From the IMG/VR virus record IMGVR_UViG_2778261690_000005, positions 1 to 17,234 of that record: a stretch of 17,234 nucleotides of DNA; one strand, 5' to 3'. The notes below the pieces were generated by a model. The model was not told the origin of the DNA. It saw only the letters and a list, made by a program, of their open reading frames with translations, and searched no databases. Position 1 is the stretch's first letter. Each line of letters opens with the position of its first letter. Shown here in pieces: positions 2,953-11,348 of the stretch. This stretch comes from a virus (lineage: Duplodnaviria; Heunggongvirae; Uroviricota; Caudoviricetes). The position numbers were made by a program, and so were the translations under genes.

Positions 2953-3028
2953 TGGTGCTGGTTAACGGACTTGAACCGCTACCCATTCGCTTACAAGGCG
3001 ACTGCTCTACCATTGGAGCTAAACCAGC
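2953..3028 (-). tRNA. tRNA-Thr (anticodon UGU)
   Basis: Hand-folded 76-nt cloverleaf on the minus strand: 7-bp acceptor stem GCTGGTT/AACCAGC, D-stem GCTC/GAGC, anticodon loop CTTGTAA (U33, anticodon TGT, A37), T-arm AGCGG-TTCAAGT-CCGTT, discriminator A, encoded CCA. Confidence 0.7.
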
Positions 3029-3033
3029 ATGTT

Positions 3034-3108
3034 TGGCGGGACAGCGTGGGCTCGAACCACGATAAGAAGGTTAACAGCCTTCCGTAATGACCTTTATACG
3101 ACTGACCC
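3034..3108 (-). tRNA. tRNA-Asn (anticodon GUU), somewhat divergent
   Basis: Hand-folded 75-nt cloverleaf: perfect anticodon stem GAAGG/CCTTC with loop CTGTTAA, T-arm CGTGG-TTCGAGC-CCACG, encoded CCA. The acceptor stem GGGTCAG/CTGTCCC has one T-T mismatch and the D-stem is weak. Confidence 0.6.
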
Positions 3109-3164: not shown

Positions 3165-3194
3165 ATTATGGCTAAATGGATAATTGCATGTCAA
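3165..3194 (-). promoter_or_regulatory. Candidate late promoter pR' overlapping the 3' end of Q
   Basis: Minus-strand consensus -35 TTGACA (plus 3189-3194), 18-bp spacer, -10 CATAAT (plus 3165-3170). The Q stop codon lies in the spacer. Confidence 0.45.
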
Positions 3195-3690
3195 GGCTTT
3201 TAACAGCAACATGCTTAACTTTCTCAACACGTTTACGCATTTTGAAAGCATTTTGCATTGGCTGGTACAAAACAAATAACGACGCTTTCAGGATGTCGTC
3301 AATTTCGTTTCTACAGGTTGCCAGTGAAGGTTTTCTACATCCCTCGCCACCACGTCCACACATCTTGCGTGGCTTTGCAGTCGCGTGATAGTAGGATGCA
3401 ATTGCTCGCTTAGATGAACCATGAGCGTAGTAGCTGAGGAGGATGCCAAAGGCTTTCTTGTCAATGTACATGACGGAATCGACGACCTGAGAAATCAACA
3501 TTCCATCATCATCATTGCACATTGGCCTTGTCATAACTCTTCCCGGCTCTACGCTCTCCATGAACTTCGCTATTACGCTGCTCATGCGCTTTTCCAGACG
3601 ACCTGAATAAACCCATGCGCCCCACAGTTCAAGCCAGCCATTCAGCCACTCATGCTGTTCTTTGGTGAGGTTTAGTTCTCTTATGCCCAC
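3172..3690 (-). CDS. Q: Late antiterminator Q, phage 82 / QuuD type (not lambda-Q type)
   Basis: 172 aa between the nin region and the lysis genes. Motifs [29 protein letters not shown] resemble DLP12 QuuD / phage-82 Q as recalled; a Cys cluster (CGRGGEGC...C) is present. Confidence 0.75.
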
Positions 3691-4536: not shown

Positions 4537-5144
4537 GCGGCCTCACTTCTGCTATTTCGCAGGTCTTTGAGTTTCCGTTGGTACTCTGCCTTAATCGCCT
4601 TGCACTCTTCGATAGTCCAGCGATGGCGGTTATGGTTTGATTCGATTTCGTCTACTGCTTCCTGCCCGATGCGGCTAATCAGTTCGACGCGATACGGAAC
4701 GAGATTTCCGCTTTTGTGCTGGTTGCACACCACGCATTGCTTGTGAATATTGCGTTCATCAAATCGGAGTTGAGGTGCCGCAGCAGTTGTCCGGTAATGT
4801 CCGGCATCCCACTGAGCAGACGTGAGCGTTCCGCACGAGATACATGGTAAGTCGCGGTCTCTTTCTCTGATGAAGGCGTTTACGGCTTGTTGGGCTTGTT
4901 TAATCCAGTAACTGCGGGGCTTTAAGGCGAGTTTTCGAATCTTAAGTTTATCTTTCTGTTTCTGCTCCTCTCGTCGTCGTTTCTTCTCTGCTGCCTTTTC
5001 CGCTTTTTCGCGTTCTTTGCTTCGTCGTTCGAGTGCTATCTTGGTTCCACACTCTGGAGAGCACCACCACTGATTGGCGAATGCAGGGTGAAACCATTCC
5101 CGACATTCATCGTTTTTACATCGTCTTCGCGCTGGTTTAGCCAT
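4533..5144 (-). CDS. ninG: NinG (Rap recombination endonuclease)
   Basis: 203 aa ([33 protein letters not shown]...), lambda NinG-like; ATGA overlap with ninH. Confidence 0.9.
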
Positions 5145-5307
5145 CGTCTTCTTCCTCGTGCATCGAGCTATTCGGATCGCTCATCAGTTCTGCGCAGCAG
5201 TGCTCACACACGTGAACTTACAGCACATGCAGCTTCTGACCGCAATTAGCGCACGTTAAAGCCCGCTCGACGCTTTCTTGTTCGTAACTTCGATTTGGGT
5301 CAATCAC
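5137..5307 (-). pseudogene. ninF: ninF homolog interrupted by an in-frame TAA at codon 30, with a GTG start
   Basis: 171-nt frame from GTG at 5307 (overlapping the ninE stop) reads [29 protein letters not shown], then TAA at 5218-5220, then continues in frame as [26 protein letters not shown] to a TAA overlapping the ninG start. The CxxC...CxHCC motif is split by the stop. Confidence 0.55.
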
Positions 5308-5486
5308 CTTGTATTCCTCGCACGATGTCTTAGCCACCGGATATCCCACAGGTGAGCCGTGTAGTTGAAGGTTTTTACGTCAGATTCTTTTGGGATTGGC
5401 TTGCGTTTATTTCTGGAGCGTTTCGTTGGAAGGTATTTGCAGTTTTCGCAGATTATGTCGGTGATACTTCGTCGCTGTCTCGCCAC
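5304..5486 (-). CDS. ninE: NinE
   Basis: 60 aa ([51 protein letters not shown]...), lambda NinE-like as recalled. Confidence 0.85.
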
Positions 5487-5626
5487 ACGTCCTCCTTTTC
5501 CTGCGGTAGTGGTAACACCCCTGTTGGTGTTCTTTCACATCGGAGACACCATCGATTCCAGTAAGGTTGATTTGGTCGGAAGCGGTTATCTTCTTTGCAT
5601 TCACCGCACCGATAACATCGCATCAT
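5453..5626 (-). CDS. ninD: NinD (Cys-rich small protein)
   Basis: 57 aa from the ATG at 5626 ([31 protein letters not shown]...). ATGA overlap with the ninB stop and 34-nt overlap with ninE, the same geometry I recall for lambda. Confidence 0.7.
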
Positions 5627-6063
5627 GCTGCCCGATCTCCCCATCTCGCTTTCCACTCCAGAGCCAGTCGCGCTTCGTCTGACCACTTAACGCCACGCTC
5701 TGTACCGAATGCCTGTATAAGCTCTAATAGCTCCGCAAATTCGCTTACACGCATCCTGCTGGTTGACTGGCCTATTACCACAAAGCCATTCCCGGCAAGG
5801 TTAGGAACAACGTCCTGCTGCTTTAATGCTGCGGTAAACACACACTTCCAGCTTTCTGCATCCAGCCAGCGACCATGCCATTCAACCTGACGAGAGACGT
5901 CACCAAGGCAAGCCCAAAGCTTTCGGTTTTGGTCTAAGCTGCGGTTGCGTTCCTGAATGGTTACTACGATTGGTTTGGTTGGGTCTGGAAGAATTTGCTG
6001 TACTGCGTGAATAGCGTTTTGCTGATGTGCTGGAGATCGAATTTCAAAGGTTAGTTTTTTCAT
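5623..6063 (-). CDS. ninB: NinB (Orf recombination mediator)
   Basis: Near-identical to lambda NinB from [55 protein letters not shown]...; RBS GGGGAGAGGGAAG. ninC is absent between ninB and ninD. Confidence 0.9.
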
Positions 6064-6140
6064 GACTTCCCTCTCCCCCAAATAAAAAGGCCTGCGATTA
6101 CCAGCAGGCCTGTTATTAGCTCAGTGATGTAGATGGTCAT
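6060..6140 (-). CDS. Candidate 26-aa hydrophobic micro-protein ([26 protein letters not shown])
   Basis: Below the six-frame length cutoff. ATG overlaps the helicase stop (TGATGA), the stop overlaps the ninB ATG (ATGA), and AAGGAGGA sits 5 nt upstream of the ATG. One predicted TM helix followed by a basic tail. Confidence 0.4.
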   Translation of the reverse strand: MTIYITELITGLLVIAGLFIWGRGKS

Positions 6141-7576
6141 CAGAATCCTCCTTTCTTCTTGGACTGCGGTTCCTCGCGTTCACGTCGGCGCATTTCAGCA
6201 GACTGTTGGTCTGTGTCATAAATAGCGCCATTTGCCTGAATGCAATACACCGTGCCGGTATTGCCATGACGATTGAGACGAAGGATTAGTTCAGTTTCAC
6301 CAGGTGGAACACTGTCATCAAAAGCGCCTTCACGATGGATCCCGACCCAATAATCGCAATCCTGTTCAATCTGCCCTGTATCTCGTGAGTCACTTGGTAA
6401 TGGGCGTTTATTGGTTCTGCTTTCCAGTGCGCGGTTAAGCTGCGTCAGAAGCACAACAACGCAATCAAGCTCTTTGGCAAGGTTCTTCAGTCCTTTGGTG
6501 ATCATGCCGTAAGCAAGGTCGTTGCGATCGGCCTTCTCAGCGGTCATTAGTGTCAGGTAATCGACCAGAATCATGCCAACACATCCTTTTTCTCGCTTGA
6601 TTCGACGGCTTTCGCTGACGATTTGAGCCAGAGATAATCCCGGCGTGTCGTCGATGTAAAGCAGGTCTATTTCACTCAAGCGATTGGCTGTTTCTATCGC
6701 CCTGTTGAAGTCACCATCGTAATCACCCTGATAGCCGTCATCGGCGTCATTTGTCGCCGGAAGGTAAAAAATATTCGGGTTAACACCAGACTTCTGCCCT
6801 ACCAGTTTTTCCAGTATCTGATCACCTGGCATTTCAAGGCTGAACATCAATGCGGGCTTTTTCTCATGCACTGCGCAATTGATTGCCATCTGGCTGTATA
6901 GCGTCGTTTTCCCCATCTTAGGGCGAGCGCCAATGACAAACAGAGAGCCTTTCACCAGACCTTTCGGTGACAGCATCCTGTCCAACGATGGGATCCCTGT
7001 GCTCATTCCCCGTTGTTCTCCTGATGGGTCAAATCTCTTCTCAAGGTCGCTAACCCAGTCTTCCATGACCTCACCAAATGAACGAAGGCCGCGACGCGAT
7101 CCGGTTTTTGCATGGTCTGTCAGTTGCGTGAAAATCGACTGAATAGCTTCGTACTTCTGCGTCGCAGTCATTCCGTTGCGGGAATAGAGCAATTCCGTCG
7201 CTTCAGTCATGCGGTTGATGGCGTAGCGTTCCATTGCGGTTTCACGAACCTGCATTGCATAGGCAACGATGTTTGCTGCGCTTGGCGTGTTCTTTGCGAT
7301 CTCAGCGATATAAGCAAAACCGCCAACAGACACCGTTAACGATTTACGCTCCAGTTCATCGAAAAGCGTCAGGCCATCTACTGGCTTTTGCTCCCAGTGC
7401 ATTCTGGTTATTTCTTCGAAAAGGATTTTGTGTGGTCGGCTGTAAAATGAATCGGGCTTCAGCATCGCCAGAACTTTCTGGACGCGCTCACTGCTGTCAT
7501 CATCCAGAAGCAATCCACCAATCACCGCCTGCTCTGCCTCGATGCTATGGGGCGGCGCATAAAAATTATCGGTCAT
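6140..7576 (-). CDS. Replicative DNA helicase, DnaB family (phage-encoded, P22 gene 12-like)
   Basis: DnaB N-terminal motif (SIEAEQAVIGGLLLD), Walker A GARPKMGKT, RecA-like C-terminal domain. ATG at 7576 is preceded by GAGGGTG; the six-frame start at 7591 is GTG. Confidence 0.9.
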   Translation of the reverse strand: MTDNFYAPPHSIEAEQAVIGGLLLDDDSSERVQKVLAMLKPDSFYSRPHKILFEEITRMHWEQKPVDGLTLFDELERKSLTVSVGGFAYIAEIAKNTPSAANIVAYAMQVRETAMERYAINRMTEATELLYSRNGMTATQKYEAIQSIFTQLTDHAKTGSRRGLRSFGEVMEDWVSDLEKRFDPSGEQRGMSTGIPSLDRMLSPKGLVKGSLFVIGARPKMGKTTLYSQMAINCAVHEKKPALMFSLEMPGDQILEKLVGQKSGVNPNIFYLPATNDADDGYQGDYDGDFNRAIETANRLSEIDLLYIDDTPGLSLAQIVSESRRIKREKGCVGMILVDYLTLMTAEKADRNDLAYGMITKGLKNLAKELDCVVVLLTQLNRALESRTNKRPLPSDSRDTGQIEQDCDYWVGIHREGAFDDSVPPGETELILRLNRHGNTGTVYCIQANGAIYDTDQQSAEMRRREREEPQSKKKGGF

Positions 7577-8456
7577 CGTGTTCACCCTCACGAACTTTCA
7601 GGTAGGTATTGTCGTTAAGCAGGAAATCAAATCCCTTTTTGTGCCAGACGGTTCCGCGTTGATGGTTTGGGCGTTCTTCGAACATCCATCGGCAATTTTC
7701 GCCTACGTAGCTCAAATAATTTCTCCAGTCCTGCATCGTGAACCCATGCCCGTCAAGCTGGCGGGTTATCACTCCGGCTTTGCGCCAGAACGTTCGGATC
7801 TGGTTTTTACGCTTGTCATTCAGTGCGCGGATTCTTGGCGCTTCAGGAAGGATTTCGTGGTAAGCATCGACAACATCCTGACAGCTAACGGAAGGTTTTT
7901 TCTTGTCAGACTTTTTGTCTGCTGTGGCACTCTCTAATACGTCAGTATTAGAGATATTATTTATATTATTGTTTATGGACAACCGTTGGACAACCGTTGG
8001 ACAATCTCCGCTGAGAGCCGCGCCATTACTGGTGTTTGCGTTGGACAACCGTTGGACAACCGTTGGACAATTTTTTGCCTGAAAATCGTCATATTTAACG
8101 ATTGTAAACAGGCTAAATTTCTTCCCCATCGAGCAAATATTAAGCATCCCTTTCGACTCAAAAGTCCGTAATAAGCTCCGAACTTTGTTGTCGGGGATGA
8201 ATGTTTCTCTGACCAGCGACGGGCGTCCAGTTATCATCTGACCGCGATCAACAGTTATCGGACCGATATCCGTATTGACGACAGTAGATTCGTGATTAGC
8301 CTTGAGGATTAAGTGAAGCCAAAGATGTACTGCCTGAGAGTCCTTATAGAGCCTGCTGTCCATAAACTGGCGGTGTATAGAGACATACCCCATACTGGAT
8401 GCCTCCTGATGTTGTACAGGGTTATGCCTGTAATCAGCTAACTTAACGACGCCCAT
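7566..8456 (-). CDS. Replication initiator, lambda O / P22 gp18-like, with ori iterons inside the gene
   Basis: 296-aa ORF immediately upstream of the helicase, in the cII-proximal position of lambda O. The central part encodes the repeated peptide CPTVVQRLS twice, mirroring the DNA iterons, and an Asn/Ile-rich linker follows the AT-rich DNA segment. Confidence 0.8.
   Translation of the reverse strand: MGVVKLADYRHNPVQHQEASSMGYVSIHRQFMDSRLYKDSQAVHLWLHLILKANHESTVVNTDIGPITVDRGQMITGRPSLVRETFIPDNKVRSLLRTFESKGMLNICSMGKKFSLFTIVKYDDFQAKNCPTVVQRLSNANTSNGAALSGDCPTVVQRLSINNNINNISNTDVLESATADKKSDKKKPSVSCQDVVDAYHEILPEAPRIRALNDKRKNQIRTFWRKAGVITRQLDGHGFTMQDWRNYLSYVGENCRWMFEERPNHQRGTVWHKKGFDFLLNDNTYLKVREGEHDDR
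7946..8075. repeat. Candidate origin of replication: two clusters of three 11-bp iterons (GGACAACCGTT) plus a flanking AT-rich segment
   Basis: GGACAA cores at 7977, 7988, 7999 and at 8043, 8054, 8065 with exact 11-bp periodicity, about 34 bp between clusters, and an AT-rich stretch at 7946-7976. Architecture resembles lambda ori inside O. Confidence 0.7.
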
Positions 8457-10061: not shown

Positions 10062-10430
10062 ATGGTTGGAACCGCTATAGCAAGCTTTTTGGGGATGTTG
10101 GCAATCTCAACAATTTACGGCTTAGCGCATGCTTTTATTGCGAAATCTCTATCAGAAAAAATAAGCCAGGCTTGGGCGCATAGATCAGCTCGTTTCATGA
10201 TTCTGGTGATCATAGCAATACAAGGGATATCTGCATTTATCATCTATGGATCAAGCTTATACCTATTGTATCAAGGCGCGACATTTACGCCTTACACCAG
10301 TGATTACGGAACTCTATACGATGGTAGTGAAGACATCTCTATGGCTTGGATCGTCTTTGGTTTATCTATGGCCGTGTCTGTTGTAGCAGACATCATTAAG
10401 GTAATTCTCGTCTTAACCTTCGCTGACTAA
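10062..10430 (+). CDS. Small integral membrane protein (122 aa, about 3 TM helices) at the rex position downstream of cI
   Basis: ATG preceded by AAGGGGG with a 5-nt spacer, 19 nt after the cI stop. Three hydrophobic helices (residues about 4-26, 45-69, 95-120). No resemblance to lambda RexA or RexB as recalled. Confidence 0.6.
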   Translation: MVGTAIASFLGMLAISTIYGLAHAFIAKSLSEKISQAWAHRSARFMILVIIAIQGISAFIIYGSSLYLLYQGATFTPYTSDYGTLYDGSEDISMAWIVFGLSMAVSVVADIIKVILVLTFAD

Positions 10431-11048: not shown

Positions 11049-11348
11049 ATGACAGTAGTCATTACATATCTGGCTGACGATAACGCCAGAAATCGCCGCA
11101 GAGCACGCAGACAGGCTCAACGTGAACAGGCAATGCAAGAACAGCGATTGGCGCGAAAGATTGCGCTAAAGCTCTCTGGTTGCGTCAGAGCAGATAAAGC
11201 AGCATCACTCGGAAGCCTTCGCTGCAAGAAGGCAGAAGAAGTCGAGCGTAAACAGAACCGTATTTACTACCGCAAGCCACGCAGTGAAATGGGTGTGACT
11301 TGTGTTGGTCGCCAGAAAATGAAATTAGGCAGCAAACCACTTATTTGA
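11049..11348 (+). CDS. N: N antiterminator
   Basis: 99 aa with an N-terminal Arg-rich motif (DDNARNRRRARRQAQREQ) and a C-terminus resembling lambda N (YYRKPRSEMGVTCVGRQKMKLGSKPLI versus WYSKPGERGITCSGRQKIKGKSIPLI, from memory). RBS GGAGG with a 5-nt spacer; nutL and nutR are present. Confidence 0.85.
   Translation: MTVVITYLADDNARNRRRARRQAQREQAMQEQRLARKIALKLSGCVRADKAASLGSLRCKKAEEVERKQNRIYYRKPRSEMGVTCVGRQKMKLGSKPLI

Follow-up and report, generated by a model that had tools for sequence, protein, structure and literature searches.

Names and annotations for the ninA open reading frame (ORF) and the transcription terminator tR2 go back decades in lambda-like and P22-like phages. In genome papers, ninA appears in the lists of lambda and P22 nin genes (PMC8022706, PMC2629481, PMC3349717). 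The ATGA chains of the nin region are also known, and PMC8022706 credits them, by citation, to Kroger & Hobom 1982. Without N, pR transcription past tR1 "completely stops at tR2" (PMC7084815). According to Li et al., 16 bp separate tR2 from the NinA stop codon downstream of it, and tR2 has an efficiency of ~0.9 when a stop codon lies at least 30 bp upstream and of <0.1 when it lies at 5 bp (PMC4824070).

In the P22 RefSeq record, an 81-nt ninA CDS (34673..34753; YP_063725.1; UniRef Q38675) lies between gene 12 (helicase) and ninB, and a terminator feature inside it (34703..34728) is labeled "L2; similar to phage lambda". The ORF is also called NinA in mEp234, Sf101, SE1Spa, PhiR12_2, and X78401. 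Labels for ninA, the terminator, or tR2 are carried at this place by X78401, AM072972 (ninA and tR2), and SE1Spa, and X78401 and AM072972 carry both. In the lambda RefSeq record and in PGAP genomes the ORF is unannotated. Some records carry other names. Phage ECP1 (KY979108.1; L002 1..1078) has product names that are off by one gene, such that the helicase is "NinA protein", the 81-nt ninA is "NinB protein", and ninB is labeled Dam methyltransferase. A 32-aa NinA-like peptide of the HK97 gp56 type (MTIYITELITGAIYTVALFYWIKNEGDPDGHR) is widely named "histone H1" in NCBI (E. coli, Salmonella, Shigella), which is evidently a propagated annotation error.

The ninA/tR2 segment of a mosaic lambdoid prophage

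The window (the whole stretch of DNA analyzed, 17,234 nt) is a mosaic lambdoid prophage whose best phage matches span about half of it at ~97% identity. Read along the minus strand, the genes in order are cro, cII, an O-like initiator, a DnaB-like helicase, ninA/tR2, ninB, NinG, a NinI-like phosphatase, a Q-like antiterminator, a holin, and an endolysin; the plus strand carries cI and an N-like antiterminator. The tR2 of lambda works in a setting of this kind. The gap from the Q-like antiterminator to the holin holds two tRNA genes (2956..3108, minus strand; 61.5 and 53 bits to Rfam RF00005), an arrangement also found in several Stx-type lambdoid phages. Directly downstream of cI, a 122-aa ORF (10062..10430, plus strand) matches only phrog_6534 (unknown function, E=3.4e-78); its position would be compatible with an accessory or exclusion gene expressed from the prophage. 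The features considered here are as follows.

11049..11348, plus strand: N-like antitermination protein of the leftward operon (phrog_271, E=4.8e-37)
6140..7591, minus strand: DnaB-like replicative helicase of the P22 gene 12 / HK022 P type (phrog_19, E=1.7e-135)
6146..6153, minus strand: ninA Shine-Dalgarno (SD) sequence AAGGAGGA, within the last helicase codons, 5-nt spacer (TTCTG) to the ATG
6060..6140, minus strand: ninA ORF, 26 codons plus stop (ATG 6140..6138, stop TGA 6062..6060)
6112..6140, minus strand: 29-nt 5' part of ninA (MTIYITELI-T), spacer from the upstream stop codon to the hairpin, with coding-like variation
6088..6111, minus strand: tR2 hairpin AGGCCTGC-tggtaatc-GCAGGCCT from the terminator scan, 8-bp stem with 6 G-C pairs and 8-nt loop
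6080..6087, minus strand: tR2 T-tract TTTTATTT, the RNA release region, 18 nt 5' of the ninA stop codon
6066..6079, minus strand: purine-rich ninB ribosome-binding region GGGGGAGAGGGAAG, read from the sequence
5623..6063, minus strand: ninB (Orf recombination mediator; phrog_72, E=1.5e-58), aligning with the lambda NinB start MKKLTFEI
3172..3690, minus strand: Q-like late antiterminator (phrog_943, E=1.3e-92), sharing the rightward operon with tR2 and located downstream of it

A preliminary description of this DNA, which gave no strand, had reported a hydrophobic micro-ORF of 26 codons with a strong SD sequence and overlaps with both neighboring genes. The ORF is real and lies on the minus strand, and the reported signals can be read directly from the sequence: AAGGAGGA at 6153..6146 is followed by TTCTG and the ATG, the helicase stop TGA (6142..6140) and the ninA ATG have base 6140 in common (TGATG), and the ninA stop TGA overlaps the ninB ATG (6063..6061) as ATGA. 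The anti-SD duplex of this upstream context has a predicted energy of -10.0 kcal/mol, and residues 3-21 of the peptide have a mean Kyte-Doolittle hydropathy of 2.03. The same layout is present in P22, mEp234, Sf101, and ECP1. On the minus strand, the start AUGAC (6136..6140) reverse-complements GUCAU at the start region of ninB (6062..6066); this 5-bp helix is paired in both the minimum free energy and centroid folds and encloses the whole ninA ORF, possibly by chance.

The exact peptide is deposited as "NinA protein" (NCBI AFM76324.1 and others; UniRef K7PHM1), and residues 1-26 match phrog_5907 (E=1.6e-19), a PHROGs family of unknown function. The peptide had no significant match in Pfam, NCBIfam, PADLOC, or PDB, and a search of the published literature for the peptide string gave no match. 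Its position is that of NinA, whose ORF starts on the stop codon of the last replication gene (the helicase here) or of ren (in lambda) and ends on the start codon of the gene that follows, either ninB or another nin gene.

At 40567..40647, in the interval from ren to ninB, lambda has the same 81 nt as the window except for one synonymous C/T difference. The hairpin, T-tract, ninB ribosome-binding region, and ATGA overlap with ninB are all as in the window, so by sequence the ORF is the lambda ren-ninB "intergenic" region containing tR2. The upstream gene differs. It is ren in lambda, with an ATGA overlap and a GGAG SD, whereas in the window it is the DnaB-like helicase, with the TGATG overlap and the AAGGAGGA SD. 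In a megablast search with the junction, similarity to ren-carrying lambdoid phages starts at query 260 (window 6141), one base before the ATG. The preliminary description had also placed the ORF in the slot that ren occupies in lambda, and this does not hold. Lambda carries ren and, directly downstream, the same 81-nt ORF, whose ATG overlaps the ren stop; the same order of ren followed directly by ninA is present in O276, SfI, and HK140. The ORF therefore does not replace ren, and neither ren homology nor mutually exclusive occupancy was found.

P22 shares the architecture of the window. The P22 hairpin is identical, and ninA differs at 6 nt, four of them synonymous, with the others giving I>V and S>T. 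The helicase class and the SD of P22 are unlike those of the window.

Terminator tR2 and its alleles

Intrinsic terminators combine a GC-rich stem-loop with a U-rich tract directly after it on the transcribed strand, and this is the arrangement at 6111..6080. The stem is a perfect 8 bp, with a fold energy of -15.7 kcal/mol (z=-3.6); none of 200 shuffled sequences was as stable, and no other terminator-like site was found across the scanned 2-kb region. Hairpin and T-tract have the same sequence in lambda and in phage O276, where they are labeled "TR2 Rho-independent transcription terminator", and they occupy the same place in the pR operon, between the replication genes and ninB. The terminator starts 30 nt past the ninA AUG, and the helicase stop is 28 nt ahead of the hairpin. 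The preliminary description overlooked this terminator within the ORF. tR2 is the established function of the segment, and it also fixes the sequence behind about half of the hydrophobic stretch.

By identity with lambda, where this function is established, the center of the segment as RNA would halt rightward pR transcripts that are not modified by an N-type antiterminator, through the hairpin and its U-tract. The nin genes and Q would therefore depend on N, and the N-like protein of the window is expected to be the factor that overrides tR2.

Among loci with the hairpin in canonical register, 260 of 270 have no pair-breaking change, and the other 10 lose one pair each. A recurrent variant, C52>A (peptide L>I; loci L347, L348, L349, L363, L367, and relatives), loses the second pair of the stem, counted from its foot, and RNAfold predicts a 6-bp stem (-11.6 kcal/mol) followed by ATTTTTATTT. 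This variant may be a weaker terminator allele.

Besides tR2, at least three more terminator hairpins are found at this place in the ORF. HK97 gp56 and its relatives (32 aa) have the same first 31 nt as the window (MTIYITELITG), a terminator-like hairpin and T-run at the same position, an 18-nt core of the same length, and a short ORF that overlaps the next gene. They differ in the hairpin itself (AGGGGCTATT/AGTAGCCCTT, -12.6 kcal/mol, peptide TGAIYTVALFYW), in the C-terminal tail, and in the downstream gene, which is gp60 instead of ninB. A derivative of this HK97-type hairpin has a compensatory T-A to C-G stem change. Because the canonical and HK97-type alleles both have a variable core of 18 nt (6 codons), the frame is kept. 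The L382-type hairpin (AGGCCTACT/AGTAGGCCT, -14.6 kcal/mol) encodes the peptide TGLLITVGLFI. Compensatory G-C to A-T stem changes are also present in other hairpin alleles; in the L382 type, stem pair 36-47 has changed in this way, and the ORF reads CTG>CTA (silent) and GCA>GTA (Ala>Val). Scans anchored on the two rare hairpins returned only loci with the conserved N-terminus (4/4).

Stx phages of the SH2026Stx1 type carry an HNH endonuclease gene whose insertion point within ninA is exactly the 5' edge of the hairpin. The 5' part of ninA runs on for 25 codons into another hydrophobic helix and a basic tail (MTIYITELIAGLSLLMVLTVYIIKYILYANKKTN). The resulting 34-aa allele keeps MTIYITELI and has no stable hairpin (z=-0.76) and no T-tract. 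An 8/8 pairing in canonical register can be drawn for this allele, mostly with G-U pairs, but at this z-score it was rejected as a terminator and the allele was treated as terminator-less. The canonical tR2 hairpin of these loci is located directly after the HNH stop codon. The HNH endonuclease is free-standing, has 203 aa (L054, L120, L190, L218, L352, L373; MG986485.1 15656..16349, corresponding to L343 1857..2550), and has a start that overlaps the 34-aa hydrophobic ORF left by truncation of ninA. Its TAA stop abuts the tR2 hairpin with 0-nt spacing, and tR2 should therefore be strongly weakened under the distance rule of Li et al. This arrangement suggests that the protein is a homing endonuclease targeting the ninA/tR2 sequence.

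Distribution and variation of the reading frame

About 380 related loci were gathered, anchored on NinB, on the hairpin, or on the 5' part of ninA, and divergent copies were sought with DNA patterns. The ORF has 20-35 aa in 325 of 326 loci. The exception, L244, has lost 1 nt after the hairpin, and its ninA-like ORF thereby continues in frame into the downstream gene as a fusion. Two other loci have small length changes: a 1-nt deletion ahead of the ninB ATG in L037 gives an ORF of 31 aa, and an extra T in the T-tract of L061 cuts the ORF to 22 aa. The ORF was found in 421 phage records by tblastn, and the 111-nt region is present in 2083 of 5426 complete E. coli genomes. The earlier opinion that the ORF is not due to chance is borne out by these counts. 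The 81-mer is identical in 39 of the first 87 related loci examined, and of 207 loci with the hairpin, 114 have an identical 29-nt 5' part. In the NinB contig scan, many contigs (L007-L020, L024, L027-L034) are 99-100% identical to lambda ninB, several at ~48.4 kb, and occur in assemblies labeled Pseudomonas, Oceanobacillus, Bradyrhizobium, Shewanella, Nocardioides, Veillonella, and others. These are most likely contamination with lambda control DNA, and the informative loci of that scan were L025, L026, and L029 only.

Nine unrelated upstream sequences, among them ren, helicases of two types, and several hypothetical genes, meet ninA in every case exactly at its ATG, with a stop codon that usually overlaps or abuts it. 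An anti-SD duplex of -5.9 kcal/mol or stronger is present in 8 of the 9 upstream classes, whereas the share among control ATGs of these loci is 14-20% (P=1.6e-5).

Synonymous bias was tested only with loci that had not been selected on the 29-nt 5' segment; loci found with the back-translated pattern were left out because this pattern selects for synonymous change. Twelve distinct variants occur in the 29 nt, of which 8 are synonymous and 8 are at codon position 3, and the four that change a residue give T>I, I>L, I>V, and I>M (binomial P=0.0016; mutation-type-preserving permutation P=0.005; the number of independent substitutions in this sample is small). The preliminary description had proposed conservation of the frame, with synonymous-site variation, as a check on the ORF, and the related loci agree with it on both points.

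The hairpin region is hydrophobic in the ninA frame alone; in both major alleles, its two remaining frames are either polar or interrupted by stop codons. The idea that the terminator alone forces the hydrophobicity was rejected on these grounds. All forms of the peptide have ~20 hydrophobic residues and then a charged end. The C-terminal tail falls into 22 different classes, and a mid-helix L>Q change occurs in ~10 loci.

The element is dispensable. NinB loci at ~81% identity have no ninA/tR2 element at all. Thirteen loci and L067, all with identical NinB, have neither hairpin nor ORF directly upstream, and many of them have an HK97-type copy further upstream. Some loci keep the hairpin without the 5' part of ninA. 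The ninB ribosome-binding region GGGGGAGAGGGAAG stays with ninB even in hairpin-less loci.

These data bear on whether the ORF could be a meaningless by-product, namely a tR2 region that happens to be stop-free in one frame and is neither translated nor selected. The hairpin and T-tract do force part of its composition, PGAP and the lambda RefSeq record leave it unannotated, some loci have the hairpin without the ORF 5' part, and others lack both with ninB identical. Against this stand the SD sequences in 8 of 9 unrelated contexts, the placement of every junction exactly at the ATG, the synonymous bias (P about 0.002-0.005), the intact ORF in all but one locus with its frame kept across different hairpin alleles, and a published reporter that responds to mutation of the NinA RBS or AUG (PMC4824070). 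We consider a by-product very improbable. Taken together, the intact ORF, the junctions and SD sequences, the synonymous bias, the hairpin alleles, the terminator-less form, and the frames argue that the start codon is in use and that selection acts, at a minimum, on the N-terminal residues and on the hydrophobic nature of the peptide.

Translation, coupling, and possible roles of the peptide

The 81-nt segment is quite likely the lambdoid ninA/tR2 module put to two uses, as the terminator tR2 and as an ORF that is very probably translated. On antiterminated transcripts, ninA would be one more link in the stop/start-coupled chain of the nin genes and would hand ribosomes to ninB. We infer this coupling role toward ninB from the overlaps only, and coupling may be dispensable because ninB has its own strong purine-rich ribosome-binding site, which is kept in ninA-less loci. 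Upstream, the first 29 nt would hold the terminating ribosome of the preceding gene ~28 nt from the hairpin, near the distance for full tR2 efficiency. With the helicase stop 28 nt before the hairpin, the 5' part of ninA would thus act at least as an insulating spacer. When a transcript ends at tR2, a ribosome from the ninA start would find no stop codon before the 3' end. In the constructs of Li et al., the NinA initiation site was "not weak", transcripts ended at tR2 without the NinA stop codon behaved as non-stop mRNAs and halved the output of the upstream reporter, mutation of the RBS or AUG restored that output, and NinA translation cut tR2 efficiency by only ~10% (PMC4824070).

Attenuators of the pyrBI type also have a short ORF that encloses an intrinsic terminator and can suppress it by ribosome proximity (PMC4824070). 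They differ from ninA, which has no known pause-dependent coupling and whose terminator is controlled by the N antiterminator. If ninA were a leader peptide of this kind, a ribosome re-initiating at the ATG on the upstream stop would trail RNA polymerase closely and block the tR2 hairpin, and translation of the replication gene would tune read-through into the nin genes and Q. The terminator does lie inside the ORF, with only 30 nt between its start and the AUG, and ribosomes near tR2 abolish termination (PMC4824070). In every class, the native ATG and the upstream stop overlap, an arrangement absent from the published W48 construct, in which 48 bp separate the upstream stop from the terminator (PMC4824070). 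However, NinA translation reduced tR2 efficiency by just ~10%, and Li et al. argue that a ribosome cannot catch the polymerase in the first 100 bp (PMC4824070). No alternative antiterminator structure or regulatory codon run is visible, and an Rfam search gave no significant leader match; the Trp_leader score of 16 bits (gathering score 41, E=0.96) is at chance level. Leader-peptide attenuation is thus an unlikely explanation for ninA, and tuning of nin and Q expression by replication-gene translation is likewise improbable, with the qualification that the ~10% effect comes from a construct without the native overlapping start.

A role of ninA purely as a bridge between genes leaves the amino-acid conservation and the terminator-less allele unexplained. 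The N-terminus is conserved at the amino-acid level and a terminator-less allele has a hydrophobic tail, which together suggest that the peptide sequence matters. NinA could be a functional single-pass membrane micro-protein (regulator, exclusion factor, or toxin) with the terminator encoded within its transmembrane segment, and we hold this only tentatively. It is compatible with a functional tR2. The synonymous bias and conservative replacements are in the N-terminal 9 codons, outside the hairpin. Frame and 6-codon hairpin core are kept across TGLLVIAGLFIW, TGAIYTVALFYW, and TGLLITVGLFI, and ninA is the sole hydrophobic frame of the hairpin. The 34-aa allele combines MTIYITELI with a different hydrophobic helix and basic tail in a form without stable hairpin or T-tract, and charged residues end every form after its ~20 hydrophobic ones.

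Several observations weigh against a functional membrane peptide. The viable lambda nin5 deletion removes the nin region including ninA (PMC3349717), and a P22 lysogen with a ninA-ninH deletion has been constructed. The mid-helix L>Q change is present in ~10 loci, the C-terminal tail varies freely, the ORF is absent from divergent NinB loci, and family, defense-system, and structure searches gave no match. Terminated transcripts cannot yield the full-length peptide, and the sample contains few independent substitutions. We know of no NinA phenotype.

By its ~20 hydrophobic residues and the basic tail after them, and by its length of 26-34 aa, NinA may resemble small hydrophobic bacterial and prophage peptides such as the type I toxins Hok, Ldr, and TisB. 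Unlike these toxins, ninA has no evident promoter or antisense RNA of its own and sits in a co-translated operon. The only promoter-like site in 5000-7000 is at 5481..5452, and none is adjacent to ninA. Its hydrophobicity would also fit small membrane toxins in general; the PADLOC, Pfam, and NCBIfam searches gave no match. The toxin or regulator role that had been suggested for the peptide is only putative. The ORF itself is real and coupled, and it is probably translated.

The finding is in itself ordinary, with ninA and tR2 long named and tR2 a standard model terminator. It carries a caution for the analysis of small genes, since the composition of a hydrophobic micro-ORF can stem largely from a terminator hairpin and T-tract. 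ninA is missing from the lambda RefSeq and PGAP annotation, though comparative signals indicate that it is translated and constrained at the amino-acid level. It is possible, if doubtful, that ~38% of complete E. coli genomes encode NinA as a functional single-pass membrane micro-protein whose coding sequence has co-evolved with an embedded intrinsic terminator. In this reading, the compensatory stem changes are also silent or conservative in the protein, and one lineage would have kept the protein after terminator loss. If the peptide is functional, it would be a very widespread and unstudied phage micro-protein. If the co-evolution is also true, the ninA/tR2 segment would be a clean natural example of a protein code and an RNA-structure code that overlap, and it would point to an undiscovered phage function.
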